A stretch of DNA of 64,000 nucleotides from Eledone cirrhosa (GCA_964016885.1 OZ024763.1:2852001-2916000), one strand, 5' to 3'. Shown: positions 12,707 to 59,329, numbered from the stretch's first letter. Made by a program: numbers and translations. Notes: a model not told the origin generated them from the sequence alone.

Positions 12707-13004
12707 AGTATTTCCGTAGAAAAGGTAAAGGAAAAAAGAGTGCTCTATGTATTGTACAGAGCTATTTAATTACATAATAAACAACACAATATAATTATTT
12801 CATTATTGAAGGTTTCAAGAAACTAGATGATTCTTGCAAGAAACATCCAGTTCGTTCGTCGGACAAAATAATACATTTTGTAAAATAAGAATACATAATT
12901 ATTTTGTCTGAAGAATGAACTGGATGTTTCTTGCAAGAATCACCTTGTTTATTGAGACCTTCGATAATGAAATAATTATATTGCGTTGTTTATTATGTAA
13001 TAAT
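12707..13004. mobile_element. PLE-like fold-back remnant with degenerate hammerhead and tail
   Basis: Arms about 12767-12872 and 12897-13004; CUGAAGA at 12908; tail shared with 41801-41860. Confidence 0.7.
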
Positions 13005-13043
13005 TATATATATATATATATATATATATATATATATATATAT

Positions 13044-13430
13044 GGAGGCACATGGCTTAGTGGTTAGAGCATTGGCCTTGCAATCGAAAGGTTGTGAGTT
13101 CAATTCTCAGACCGGGTGATGGGTTGTTTCCTTGAGCAAGACACTTTATTTCACATTGCTCCAGTTTACTCAGCTGTAGAAATGAGATGATAGGGACTGG
13201 GGTCCCTATCATTCCACTGTAGAGTGGTCGTGGAGGTGCCACGGCAAAAAAGCACCCAGCACTCACTGTAAATGAGGTTGGTGTTAGGAAGGGCATCCAG
13301 CTGTAGAAATCAAGCCAAATCAGTTCCTGTATGAGCAAGGCATCGTCAGCCGACCAGATACTGCCCACAACAGGACAACCCGTCTAACCCATGCTAGCGT
13401 GGAAGAACGGACGTAAAACGGTGATGATGA
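13044..13430 (+). mobile_element. tRNA-derived CORE-like SINE, full length
   Basis: A box tggcttagtgg, B box gttcaattc, ccttgagcaagacactt...ctcagctgtagaaatg resembling the CORE domain, RTE-like tail ending (gat)n. Confidence 0.85.
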
Positions 13431-13462
13431 TATGTATATATGTATATATATATATGTATATA

Positions 13463-14553
13463 ACTTTGAATAACTTTGAAATGTTTTGGCCAGTATCGGC
13501 CCAGGCCATGTCTAACTTAATAGCACCACCTGGCGAAGTCTTTCAATTCAGGATTTGGGCATCATGGTCCATTCAAGAAGGGAATTACTGTTTGCGGAGA
13601 CATATCTGGGTGTGGGTGGTTTGTCCGGGATTACTTGGAGGAATTTGTCCAAAGACTTCTTGAATTTTGTGTGGTCAGTTTCTGTTTTGACGTGTCCTGG
13701 TGTGATGTTGAAGAGAGCAGGGCCAATTGAGGTGAAATAATTGTGCCGTATTGTTGTTATGAGTTGCGATTTAGATTTTTGTTTGGGACGGATAGCACGG
13801 GGCCCAAGCCTTGGGTGATTTTGAAGGTGATGCCAACATCATTTGGGCAGTGCTGATGAAACATTTTCCACATCATGCAGATAATATAACGCTCATGGCG
13901 ACGTTGGAGTGAGTAAAGTTTCAGCTTTTCTAGTCGACCGCAGTAGTCAAGGTCTGACATGCCATCTATCTTTTGCCCTTTGGGGAGCTTCAAGTTTCAT
14001 GATACTTTGTTTCATGTGGGGAGACCACAGTGGACAACAGTATTCAAGGTGTGGTCGGGCAAAAGTGGAGAAGAGAAGGATAATGGTGTGGGAATCTCTT
14101 GACTGGAAGGTTCTGAGGATCCAGGAACACATTCTGCGGGCCATGTCAACTTTGCTGCTTATATGCGTGGCCCAGCTTATGTTGCTGTCCACGGTTACTC
14201 CAAGTCTCTGATGTTGTTAGATGCCACGAGAGTTTCACCGGAGGGAAGGGAGTACGGGAGTTTCAGAGCATCCTCTTTTCCAAAGTGGATCAGTTCGAAT
14301 TTGTCTTCGTTCAGTAACATGTTGTTCTTTTCCGCCCATTGAGTAACAGCCAGTAGGTCTGACTGAAGGCTTATCCGGTCATCCACGCCATTGATGACCT
14401 TTTGGAGCTTGGAATCATCAGCGAAAATTCTAATGTTGCTGTGTTTGATGATGTCATTAATATAGATGATGAAGAGAAGTGGGCCCAACACAGTGTCTTG
14501 TGGGACCCCACTACTGACTTTGGCTGGGTTGCATTTGACTCCTTCGACTACAA
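13463..14553 (-). mobile_element. CR1/L2-group LINE, RT C-terminal fragment with frameshifts
   Basis: [32 protein letters not shown] and LYSLQRR motifs in successive frames. Confidence 0.9.
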
Positions 14554-14554
14554 C

Positions 14555-55280: not shown

Positions 55281-55345
55281 TATTTTATCTGATGAAAGCA
55301 CACCATAATTTAACTTGGTGTCCTTGAAATATGTATAATGAAATA
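55281..55345 (+). ncRNA. Minimal hammerhead followed by a tail to about 55475
   Basis: UAUUUUAU CUGAUGA AAGc ACACCA...UGGUGU cCUU GAAA UAUGUAUA AUGAAAUA. Confidence 0.8.
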
Positions 55346-56214
55346 AATATGGTTTTATAAATATAGTTTCCATTTGTTAATATCGTATTTTTACTCCAAT
55401 TATTTGTTGAGTGCTTTATATCAGTTATAAAAATATTTGCTTGTTGTATCCCAACAATTTAAATAGAACTTTTACATATATATATATATATACATATGCG
55501 TATGTATATATATATGCATATGTATATATATATGCATATGTATACATACATATATATATATATGCATATGTATACATACATATATATATATATATATATG
55601 CATATGTATATATATATGCATATGTATACATACATATATATATATATATATATATATGCATATGTATACATACATATATATATATATATATATATATATA
55701 TATATGCGTATGTATACATACATGCGTATACATACATACGTATGCATTTTTTCTTTCATAGCGAGGCTCCCATATGTTTATAGTATATAAACATACTACA
55801 TACGTTTATATACACCCACCCCTATTATGTCTTACGCTGTCTTAGTGTCACTTCCAATACACGCAATCGCACACACACACACACATATATATATACAGGG
55901 TGTCCCAAAATGTATACACACTTTGATTAGAATGCTGCTAAAGTGTGTATACATTTTGGGGGGGACACCCTATATATATATACACACAAGCATGTGTGTG
56001 TGTGTGTGTATATATATATATATATGTGTGTATACGCATATATGTGTGTATACACATATATATATGTATGTATACATATATATATATATATATATGTGTG
56101 TGTGTGTATACATATTTATATATATATATGTGTATGTGTACTTTGAACTTTTCTTAAGTAGGACATGTTTGGATTATTACAGGCGTCGGCTGCTACTGCG
56201 AGTACCCGACAGTC

Positions 56215-57140
56215 ATAACCACCATCATCGTCATCATCACCACTACCACAGCTATCATCATCATTGTCATCACAATCATACCCCCACCACCGCCATCATC
56301 ATCATCATCATCATCATCGCCATCATCACAATCATACCCACCACAACCACCATCACCACCATCATCGTCATCACCAACAACCACCACCACCACCACCATC
56401 ACCATCATCATCGTCATCACCAACAACCACCACCATCAGCAACAATAACAACCATCACCAACAACCATCACCATCAGCAGTCCCCATCACCACTATCATC
56501 ATTCACGCACGCCGCCAACACTATCACCGCCACCACCACTACTAGCAGTCCCCCATCTCCACCATCAACCTCATTACTAAAACAACCTAACCCACCGTCG
56601 CCACCACCACTATTCTCACAAGCGCCACCTTCGTCATGGCAAGCAGCAGCAACCACCACCATCATCATCATCACTGCTGCTGCTACTACTACCACTACTA
56701 CTATTACTACCATTACTACTACTACTACTATTACTACTACTACTACTACTACTGCTGCTACTACCATTACTACTACTACTACTACTGCTACTAGCATTGC
56801 TATAACCAGCAGCCGTTGCCATCGCCACCGCCTTCACTAATATAATAAACATCCCCACCATTACCACCTTTGATAGACCTAGCAGACATCGCCGTCACCA
56901 CCATCATCGTTATACACACCACCACAGCCTCCACCACCGTCACCACCATTATCATCATCTTCATCACTTGATTACCGCCAGTGTAGAATCGTCTTAGTAG
57001 TCGGAGGGGGGGGGGGTTAGTTAGGGAAACTGGCTCACACTACAGCTACTGCTGCTATTGTTGCTGCTGTTATTACTACTACGACTACTACTACTACTAC
57101 TATTACTGCTACTACTATTACTACTACTACTACTACTAAG
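56215..57140. repeat. (CAT/CAC/TAC)n low-complexity region
   Basis: Direct inspection. Confidence 0.85.
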
Positions 57141-57339
57141 ACGAAGAAAGAAGAATTACTTGCTTGCCTGCTTTTCTCTATATCTTTCCTTCCTTTTCTC
57201 TTCCCCCTCTCTCGTTTAATCTCTCTTCCCCTCTCCCCCTCCCTTTCTCGTTCAGTCTCTCTTCCTCTCTTTCCCTCTCGTTCAATCTGTTTCTCGTGAG
57301 ATGCGAGAGAGAAAGTGAGAAGCTGAGCTGTTTGAATGT

Positions 57340-58195
57340 AGCAGAAATGTTTGGTCAAAGATAGACGGAAGAATATACAGACAGACAGATAGATAGATAG
57401 ATTGACAGACATAGAGACAACGTGAGAAGCTGAACTGCTTGTATGTAATATAGCAGACATGGTTGGTCAAATATAGGAAGAAAAGAAGGATTAATAGACA
57501 TAGTAGAGACAACGTGAGATGGTGAACTGTATGTAGCAGATATGTTTCGTCACAGATAGAAGGAAGAAGAGAGCTTAATTGTAGTGCACCTGAGCAGTGT
57601 ATACAATAATACTCATTTATTAAAAGACGACGTGAGGTGAGCTGCTAGGATGTAATATATCAGATATGGTTGGTCACATATAGAAAGAAGACCCCCCCAA
57701 AAAAACAGACAAACAATATGAGAAGGTGAGCTGTATGTCTTTACTATAGGAGACGTGGTTGATCACAGATAGAAAGAAAGAAGGCCCCCTCAAAACAGAC
57801 AGGCAACGTGAGGTGAGGTGTTTGTACTCTAGGAGACATGGTTGATCACAGATAGAAAGAAAGAAGGCCCCCTCAAAACAGACAGGCAACGTGAAGTGAG
57901 GTGTTTGTACTATAGGAGACATGGTTGATCACAGATAGAAAGAAAGAAGACCCCCCCCCCCTCAAAACAGACAATCAACGTGAGAAGGTGAGCTGTTTGG
58001 AAGGAATATTACAGAGATGCTTGGTCACAGATAGAAGGAAGAGAAGAAGAATAGACAGACACATCGTGAGAAGGTGAGCTGTTTGGAAGGGATATTACAG
58101 AGATATTTGATCACAGATAGAACTGAGACATACAGACAACGTGAGAAGGTGAGTTGTATGTAATGTAGGAGACATGTTTGGTCAAACATAGAAGA
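57340..58195. repeat. Degenerate ~80-bp tandem repeats
   Basis: Recurrent caacgtgag(aa)ggtgagctgt...atggttg(a/g)tcacagatagaa. Confidence 0.7.
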
Positions 58196-59329
58196 GAAGG
58201 AAAGAGAAGAAGAAAAAGACAACTAGACTGCTAGACAGACAGATAGACATTGAAGATCGTGAGGTTGGATAATCTTTGATAGATTTTGAAGAATAGTCGG
58301 CGACGACCGATGAATGTATGTGATTCGCAATGGGATAATACAAGAAAAATATCGAAAGGAGGAGAAGGAAGAGAGAGAGAAGAGAGGAAAAAAAAAAAGA
58401 AGGAAACGTGGAGGAAAGTGACAAGCACCTTGCTGTGGTGAGTGTGACATTGAAATTTCTCTGACAATAGATTTATTTTCACCTATGTTGTTAGCTATAT
58501 CTCTATGTGTGTATATATGATATATATATATGTATGTGTGAGTATATATATATATATATTATAGATATATTATATATAGACACATTCATTCATGTATGTA
58601 TAGACATATATATGTAATTATATATTCGTGTATGTTCACGTATGTTGTTAGTTGTCTGTATATATATGTATATATATGTATATATATATATATATATATG
58701 TATATAATATATATATATATATACATGAATGTATATATATATATATAGAGAGAGATACATTCATATATGTATATATAGATACATTCATATATGTATATAT
58801 AGACGCATTCATATATATATATGTAATTATACTTTTGTGTATGTTGTTAGTTATTGTCTGTATATATGTATATATATAACATATATATACACACTTATGT
58901 ATCTGTATACATACGTACACATTCATGTATGTATATATATTATATATATATACTGTATATATTATACATTCGTGTATGATCACGTATGTTAGTAATTGTC
59001 TGTCTGTGTGTGTATATATTTATATATATACACACACAGATATATGGATATGTATAGACAAGTTCGTGTATGTATGTATGAATATATATACTGTATATAT
59101 TATACATTCGTGTATGATCACGTATGTTAGTAATTGTCTGTCCGTGTGTGTGTGTGTATATATATATATATATATATATATATATACACACTCACAGATA
59201 TATGGATATGTTTAGACACGTTCGTGTATGTATGTATGAATGTATATATATACACACACATTCGAGTATTAGTGCAATCAAGCACTCCTGATCCCCGAGT
59301 TTTTGGTGTAAATAAGATTTTCACAGCTC

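Follow-up and report, generated by a model that had tools for sequence, protein, structure and literature searches.

Penelope-like elements (PLEs) are retroelements whose reverse transcriptases (RTs) form the sister group of telomerase RT. Families of one PLE lineage, the Hydra clade, are present in a 64,000-nt stretch of the (TA)n-rich, 3.0-Gb genome of an animal, Eledone cirrhosa (GCA_964016885.1 OZ024763.1:2852001-2916000); this stretch is called the window here, and plain coordinates refer to it. Copies of these families carry a short bulged hairpin close to where they end. The relation between this hairpin, a second one of the same kind and the two ends of the copies is described below.

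Elements of the Hydra clade have a short single open reading frame (ORF) with a C-terminal endonuclease, the protein motifs RW, DKT and CxCx5C, a hammerhead, insertion into (TA)n, inverted arms and a tail (Craig et al., 2021, PMC8557442). The origin of the one-sided tail and of the inverted arms is named in that paper as an open question. The tail is given there as 30–40 bp and is attributed to endonuclease-mediated resolution, whereas in Eledone it measures ~65–130 nt and is bounded by two hairpins. The main text of the paper contains 'stem-loop' 0 times and makes no mention of the hairpin. In File S7 of the same paper the hairpin can be recognized by eye in four of six consensus sequences, both copies being present in Hydra-1_Ajap and degenerate in Hydra-1_Crog; three consensus 3′ ends stop short of it. 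A search with six 9-mers gave four matches in the six Hydra consensus sequences and four in the much larger files of Naiad and Chlamys, where no 5′ arm is visible; line breaks mask some matches.

The initiation of reverse transcription has been followed in one in vitro study, on PAc, a Poseidon element of Anolis (Frangieh et al., 2024, PMC11167929). In PAc, reverse transcription starts at two internal positions, one on either side of the tail. The protein cuts both strands of an AT-rich target and is predicted to form a dimer; in the text available, no signal shared between families is reported. The Eledone elements would resemble PAc in having two internal starts that bound the tail, a double-strand cut and an AT-rich target. 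They differ in that the PAc start lies inside an AC-rich stem-loop within the ORF, and no repeated, clade-wide signal is described for it. A description of the motif was not found in the full-text literature searched, nor in the available text of PMC8557442, PMC11167929, PMC4209133 and PMC3846280, the search having extended neither to subscription papers nor to Repbase notes. The elements themselves have been described; it is the twin signal, and the rule by which one end of each type is combined in a pair of copies, that appear to be new.

Twin Hairpins and the Ends of Copies

The motif consists of RCTC, an inner stem, a loop of 3 to ~110 nt, a partner strand, a 2-nt bulge, GAGY and an unpaired RCT. 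The bulge reads TT in 61, TC in 14 and TA in 13 of 92 hairpins. In its strict form (a 2-nt bulge on the 3′ side and at least three inner pairs) the motif occurs nine times in the window versus 0.3 times in exact dinucleotide shuffles, and 37 versus ~3.2 times over 464 kb. A looser descriptor gives 14 matches in the window (shuffled mean 0.5) and 114 matches in 21 clusters over 1.064 Mb (3–12 when shuffled), the shuffle used here being approximate and liable to end early, so that the chance level is somewhat understated. The density is ~1 match per 9 kb of sampled DNA. All 15 strings on which a preliminary description of the window had based the motif are present, and the enrichment over shuffles, both in the window and in the larger sample, confirms that the motif is real. 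That description also let the tail open with RCTC and close with GAGYRCT; the hairpin holds, while the closure does not, as the tail continues for another 30–75 nt to an end that is fixed within each family.

The usual order of a unit is (TA)n, inverted arm, hammerhead-type core, motif, 30–75 nt more and again (TA)n. A (TA)n tract lies within 100 nt downstream of 95 of the 114 matches, compared to 19% of random positions, as expected from the insertion of Hydra-clade elements into (TA)n. In copies that extend beyond the usual tail end, as seen across L071-L100, a second hairpin follows after ~6 nt, and then the ATG. The layout is thus hammerhead-type core, end X and hairpin 1, then a spacer, end Y, hairpin 2 and the ATG, where X and Y are the copy ends just 5′ of hairpin 1 and hairpin 2, respectively, and the tail is the stretch between them. 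The preliminary description had caught half of the system: it is a second hairpin, left out of the inserted copy, that sets the far end of the tail.

Twin patterns are found 821 times genome-wide versus once in the control, and 1002 versus 12 times in a second search. In other organisms, 83 loci from metagenomes and genome bins were surveyed, 57 of them with a recognizable N-terminus, which represent 36 families. Where at least 170 nt of upstream sequence is available (29 families), two hairpins are present in 26 families, one in 1 and none in 2, with spacers of 36–59 nt (median 41). Twin bulged hairpins are carried by Hydra-type PLEs of many marine animals. Two tandem arrays have been built from these parts: a 58-bp satellite made of hairpin 1 of the 15644 family (G000:C1:14234975-14244373 onward; L185-L213, L401) and a 183-bp array in which hairpin 2, hairpin 1 and the spacer, all from the 41833 family, are repeated (L403, G000:C2:169702300-169704200).

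In 10 families, both copy ends can be predicted from the hairpins with an error of a few bases. Among 226 mapped 3′ ends, 89 are at X, 102 at Y and 33 elsewhere, and two belong to read-through copies. Together X and Y account for 191 of the 226 ends in two 17-nt windows, versus 11% if ends were uniformly distributed, while only 13 of 198 5′ starts fall in these windows. Ends lie ~6 nt 5′ of hairpin 1 or 2, in two sharp peaks at like offsets across spacers of 40–74 nt. Mirror arms, present at 60 matches, stop between −14 and +1 of hairpin 1 in 41 cases. At the other end, 61 of the 70 tails with a reference stop in the same window before hairpin 2, or 64 after correction of three 34235-family copies that had been anchored 15 nt early; the remaining 44 of 114 matches have no usable reference for this mapping. 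A TA begins at position −6 in 21 of 40 cases for hairpin 2 and in 16 of 35 for hairpin 1, versus 2–10 at other positions. Among full-length copies, four of eight end at X. In a public sequencing run (X1), (TA)n loose ends pile up 3–4 nt short of each hairpin, in 143 contigs at 1371 (hairpin at 1374) and in 125 contigs at 1459 (hairpin at 1463); this run possibly derives from the sample of the assembly itself and does not count as independent support.

The two types of end are combined in a strict manner. Of the copies arranged head to head, 56 pairs join an X end to a Y end, none joins X to X or Y to Y, and 12 have an unclassified end, although like pairs would be expected in about half of the cases if ends were chosen independently. 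Solo copies end at X (26) or at Y (42). In 53 pairs in which the reach of both arms could be compared, the X arm is longer in 26, the Y arm in 1 and both are equal in 26. Within the class with the longer X arm, the Y arm stops between −50 and +25 nt of hairpin 1 in 18 of 26 pairs. When the partner of a mirror arm is compared with the best-matching other copy in the sample, the partner is the more similar in 27 of 33 cases, a proportion that is inflated by the frequent truncation of the other copies.

Pairing and Strand of the Hairpins

Structure was assessed in 78 hairpins, obtained from the set of 92 by dropping 11 that had been called with an inner-pair requirement and three that were mis-anchored. 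The first inner pair is formed in 76 of the 78 and is of the Watson–Crick type in 72, versus 42.7 after shuffling. Pairing is seen in the 2-nt-bulge register only (89 of 92, versus 3–30 in other registers; for 11 of these 92 the calling had required an inner pair). Inner pairs 2–4 of hairpin 1 are significant by permutation (p<0.003). When the outer pair is left free, it is A-T in 72, G-C in 18, G-T in 4, A-C in 0 and other in 6 cases. The covariation of this A/G position, claimed in the preliminary description, holds as regards the A-T/G-C swaps, whereas it does not reach significance once kinship is counted. Hairpins 1 and 2 of one element use different base pairs, and one hairpin 2 has a cUUCGg loop. 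A dimer formed through a self-complementary GAGYRCTC was also considered and was rejected, as the commonest form of the motif is not self-complementary.

Several features point to the sense RNA. G-U outnumbers A-C by 18:4 in hairpin 1. In family H1, one copy (L061:1952-2024, compared with L393) misses ~730 nt from a GT donor to an AG acceptor in the 3′ untranslated region (3′ UTR)/pseudo-long terminal repeat, with one mismatch at the junction. This single case is likely a spliced copy and suggests that the template is the sense RNA, contrary to the idea of an antisense template that has been raised for PLEs (PMC3846280).

Sites in the Window

The sites in the window are the following, with hairpin type and neighbouring parts where these could be delimited.

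12739..12762, minus: hairpin 1 of the GCTC/GAGC type, 41834 cluster; mirror arm 12769-13001 stops 6 nt short
15645..15671, minus: hairpin 1, ACTC/GAGT; the tail reaches the family site, which lies 6 nt short of hairpin 2
29963..30074, minus: variant hairpin 1 with a CA bulge, a long loop and a broken inner pair
33272..33293, minus: hairpin 1; mirror arm 33299-33434 stops at −5
34101..34287, plus: hammerhead core at 34101, followed by hairpin 1 at 34235-34287; the tail stops 6 nt before hairpin 2 (read-through copy L228)
40865..40913, plus: additional site, an H1-family hairpin 1 whose 5′ arm is mutated; X/Y inverted pair 40757-40952
41335..41361, minus: additional site, hairpin 1 of the 15644 family; X/Y pair 41284-41491
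41528..41736, plus: long mirror arm with a hammerhead-type core on the minus strand, adjoining a short tail arm; hairpin 1 at 41684-41736
41834..42035, minus: hairpin 1 at 41834-41857 and palindromic arms 41863-42035; mirror arm stops at −5
47825..48296, plus: inverted arms 47825-48219, hammerhead core at 48098, hairpin 1 at 48226-48264, tail to ~48296
49430..49993, plus: arms 49430-49858, hairpin 1 at 49863-49946; tail stops 7 nt before a long-loop hairpin 2 (read-through copies)
50018..50450, plus: arms 50018-50362, hammerhead core at 50252, hairpin 1 at 50363-50390, tail
50536..50663, minus: additional site, a second member of the 29962 family, with an intact first inner pair
50821..51066, minus: hairpin 1 at 50821-50845, hammerhead core at 50938, arms 50850-51066
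53890..54023, minus: hairpin 1 at 53890-53911, hammerhead core at 53975, short mirror arm
54411..54459, plus: additional site, hairpin 1 of family H1; tail stops 3-6 nt before hairpin 2
54850..55175, plus: the mirror arm is long and the tail arm short; hairpin 1 lies at 55092-55119, and the tail stops 6-8 nt before hairpin 2
55289..55476, plus: hammerhead core at 55289, hairpin 1 at 55393-55415; tail stops 3-9 nt before hairpin 2
59281..59300, minus: doubtful site, with neither the TH bulge nor a hammerhead core and with no relative in 1.06 Mb
9264..11607, minus: negative control, 5′-truncated non-Hydra PLE with RT thumb, GIY-YIG and an inverted arm

Of the 15 sites listed originally, the one at 59281 is doubtful; four that had been overlooked are added. 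The earlier observation that the end of the arm adjoins RCTC is borne out: the mirror arm stops between −6 and +1 of RCTC at eight of the 15 sites (12738, 33272, 41833, 48226, 49863, 50363, 50823 and 55092). At 53890 it stops at −15, at 41684 and 15644 mirror arms are short or diverged, and at 29962, 34235 and 55393 no mirror arm was found in this test. The hairpin at 50363 is a mutated copy with GAA for GAG, the sister copy having GAG.

Two other features of the window lie outside the hairpin families. The truncated non-Hydra PLE (9264-11607, minus) holds a ~590-bp, 94%-identical copy of an exon of the neighbouring C2H2 zinc-finger gene (7262-7857, plus). The copy has the orientation of the gene and shares the reading frame of the RT thumb and the endonuclease, giving a 549-aa open frame, and looks like a local capture of a host gene via template switching. 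Broken fragments of long interspersed nuclear element (LINE)-type RT and endonuclease are found at 19519-21578 (minus), 14195-14620 (minus) and 32277-32646 (plus), which is ordinary for this genome.

The Elements That Carry the Hairpins

The motif had been taken to be shared between unrelated families. All families that could be traced to an ORF belong to one clade, each with a Hydra-type N-terminus, which was reached from the tails of the 15644, 34235/41684, 41833, 49863, 50363, 50823 (one copy), 54411, 55092 and 55393 families. For instance, read-through copy L215 of the 15644 family runs into the Hydra N-terminus, read-through copies of the 41834 subfamily extend into hairpin 2 and the N-terminus, and the single such copy of the 50823 family has hairpin 2 and the N-terminal motif.

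Family H1 has a 709-aa ORF, open at locus L393 and present in 8/8 full-length copies, with RDD and YIG motifs, and thus the single ~700-aa ORF with an RT followed by a C-terminal GIY-YIG domain. Its linker and RT carry the clade signature of RWK, DKT for DKG and CxCx5C in the form RLRWR (R for K), DKT in 7/8 and CNCRNRADC in 8/8 copies; other families show RWK or RWR. The H1 endonuclease is without CCHH: by eye, the segment from the GIY-like to the YIG strand contains a single Cys and no Cys pair. Full-length H1 copies share the features described for the Hydra clade (PMC8557442), and judging from these motifs the families traced to an ORF belong to it.

Hammerhead-type cores (CTGANGA..GAAA, scored as core strings only) lie 64–134 nt upstream at six of the listed window sites and 211 nt upstream at one, and 69–103 nt upstream in 16 families from other organisms, again as core strings only. 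The H1 and 15644 families are without the canonical core, and the two most abundant Hydra families (L215-L235 and L071-L100) have no canonical CTGANGA at the usual hammerhead position. Among the 150 Rfam matches listed of 579 there is no hammerhead family and no match to a curated model, only sub-threshold microRNA and pestivirus matches to repeats or palindromes. No Pfam family matched either PLE protein (Hydra-type H1 or non-Hydra), a search of solved structures gave chance matches only, and no relative was found in viral contigs.

The 48226 family is a 1322-bp non-coding unit with no ORF longer than 72 aa and no match to the H1 protein, in which the hammerhead-type core and both hairpins are retained. 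Tandem units of this length, in both orientations and with a hammerhead-type core and twin hairpins, also occur at L402 (G000:C1:130882000-130891999); the unit is likely a non-autonomous partner of Hydra elements. At L065 (~2500-4100, minus) the 3′ UTR of an H1 ORF switches to the hairpin and tail of another family, and the locus may be a chimera or a nested insertion. Hydra-type ORFs on contigs of bacterial genome bins and of a gill-symbiont assembly (L177-L183) are probably host contamination.

The only PLE ORF inside the window (9773-10747) belongs to a large non-Hydra family. This family (L002-L030, L370, L375) has several fixed ends, the main two ~44 nt apart near the ORF start. It may use another start signal, no common hairpin being seen at its ends.

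Possible Mechanism and Alternatives

The reading that is best supported, and in our view probable, is that both hairpins act on one sense RNA to position two starts of reverse transcription, one per target strand. From the two starts of PAc and from the relation between hairpins and ends we infer that an RT docks at each hairpin. In such a scheme, the protein would cut both strands of a (TA)n target, and each 3′-OH would anneal to UA ~6 nt 5′ of a hairpin, similar to the alignment region of telomerase, and be extended. Two protein subunits might occupy the two hairpins of a single RNA, each serving one target strand, a more tentative part of the scheme. The copy primed at Y would often stall at hairpin 1, the seat of the other RT, and the two cDNAs would join through microhomology or fold-back. 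The expected product has an inverted arm on one side; on the other, the arm is followed by the tail, which consists of hairpin 1 and the spacer, so that starts set by the hairpins would explain why the tail is one-sided. The full form of this idea, a two-ended integration using two like hairpins, one RNA, two RT subunits and a 2–3-nt UA patch, is not known to have been described for any retroelement; it is a fair way from certain, and we hold it to be somewhat less probable than its negation.

The comparison with telomerase needs a correction. Telomerase likewise has an internal template and a short primer-pairing stretch 3′ of the copied part, but its template-boundary element lies 5′ of the template and halts synthesis (PMC5855555), whereas here a hairpin lies 3′ of the start, and does so twice. 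An RT-positioning cis-acting RNA had been proposed earlier as loosely analogous to that element. The positioning role is retained, while the analogy is backwards, because the hairpins are 3′ of the copy ends and copies that end at Y traverse hairpin 1. Epsilon of hepatitis B virus is also a cis-acting stem-loop that is bound by the RT and triggers reverse transcription (PMC10534774). It differs in being one signal instead of two and in serving an unrelated RT. Initiation in that virus is protein-primed and starts within the bulge.

A number of observations weigh against positioning by the hairpins, or against its generality. Of the mapped ends, 33 of 226 fall elsewhere; in other organisms only 17 of 32 ends are at X or Y, many of the others being breaks in cross-family alignments; and TA microhomology blurs each end by ~3 nt. 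Other runs of the pair analysis yielded one Y+Y pair (with a reference containing (TA)n) and a single nested case of Y/Y. The 33272/53890 family has a tail end, but in those of its read-through copies that were found, hairpin 2 has a 5′ arm without a 3′ arm. The inner pairs of hairpin 2 are weak. On an N-terminus tree of 34 rows, two changes of the outer pair and five of the first inner pair are counted; with two independent pairs on well-supported branches, covariation falls short of significance once kinship is considered. The stem is predicted to be only moderately stable: the outer stem pairs with a probability >0.5 in 55 of 78 sense versus 47 antisense folds (p=0.18), and the inner pair exceeds 0.5 in only 17 of 78 folds. 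Minimum-energy folds often join hairpin 1 to hairpin 2, so that cross-pairing competes, while the different base pairs of the two hairpins within one element favor local pairing. As to generality, the non-Hydra family has fixed copy ends without such a hairpin, read-through copies included, and no RCUC/GAGY pair is present in the ~95 RNA letters of PAc given in Fig. S1 (PMC11167929). The hairpin is thus not a general PLE solution; nor is it present throughout PLEs as far as surveyed, a survey outside of which Penelope, Neptune and Nematis fall. Overall, the preliminary reading stands in part: a conserved cis hairpin with compensatory pairs is tied to the copy ends, within one clade and not across unrelated families.

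The strongest competitor, in our judgment unlikely, is that the hairpins are cut signals for the GIY-YIG endonuclease in single-stranded (ss) DNA of sense polarity or in RNA, with a cut ~6 nt 5′ and joining of the trimmed 3′ end to (TA)n. The analogy is with SsnA, a GIY-YIG nuclease that binds a short ssDNA hairpin, needs the base after the palindrome and cuts a few nt upstream, the same geometry as here, down to conserved unpaired bases following the stem, although SsnA is a bacterial single-domain ssDNA nuclease that neither binds RNA nor has an RT (PMC11893778). A role of this kind would also suit the invariant CTC/GAG core, which looks fit for sequence-specific reading, the absence of the CCHH motif from the Hydra nuclease (PMC8557442) and the need of the D. 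virilis Penelope nuclease for the tail in recognition (as cited in PMC11167929). Yet the G-U bias, the cUUCGg loop and the spliced copy point to RNA, PAc starts reverse transcription internally on uncut RNA (PMC11167929), and cutting requires an earlier, longer DNA copy, of which no trace was seen; on its own it also leaves the combination of one X with one Y unexplained.

The asymmetry of X and Y would follow directly if Y were the sole RT start and the cDNA folded back and copied itself, the second strand stopping or being cut at hairpin 1 to give X. Palindromic junctions have been taken as evidence of self-priming (PMC3846280), and the equal reach of the arms in 26 of 53 pairs fits such fold-back. 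In the other large class (26/53) the X arm includes sequence that the Y arm never reached, which cannot be made by fold-back from a Y-primed cDNA, and 26 solo copies and half of the eight full-length ones end at X; moreover, X and Y lie at equal offsets from like hairpins. Fold-back as the sole mechanism is therefore largely refuted and is given very little weight, although it may finish some insertions. Hardly more probable is a function of the hairpins in translation, transcription or cis RNA capture, with ends nearby because AT-rich flanks pair with (TA)n. Hairpin 2 is indeed close to the ATG, the flanks are AT-rich and structure is weak, but the two sharp end peaks at like offsets over 40–74-nt spacers, the strict pairing of X with Y, the retention of the hairpins in a non-coding unit and the avoidance of the X and Y windows by 5′ breakpoints are not accounted for. 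Lastly, the 3′ arm resembles Ile/Val-Glu codons, so that the motif could reflect a coding constraint ([IV]-E-[CYH]), or else chance; both are refuted by its position upstream of the ATG, by in-frame stops in the traced families and by an enrichment of more than tenfold.

Implications for Penelope-Like Elements

If positioning of the RT by the hairpins is correct, the hairpin would be a portable start signal of less than 25 nt that programs internal initiation, possibly usable as a compact start tag in RT engineering, and the tail and inverted arm of these PLEs would be the footprint of that signal. For the annotation of this abundant repeat, the motif provides a boundary rule. Since a clade-wide motif predicts both ends and couples them one-to-one, the question of the tail can be reduced to an assay in which a hairpin is moved or broken. 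Finally, given the sister-group relation between the RTs of PLEs and telomerase, an RNA element that determines where copying of an internal template begins would bear on the origin of telomerase-like template definition.

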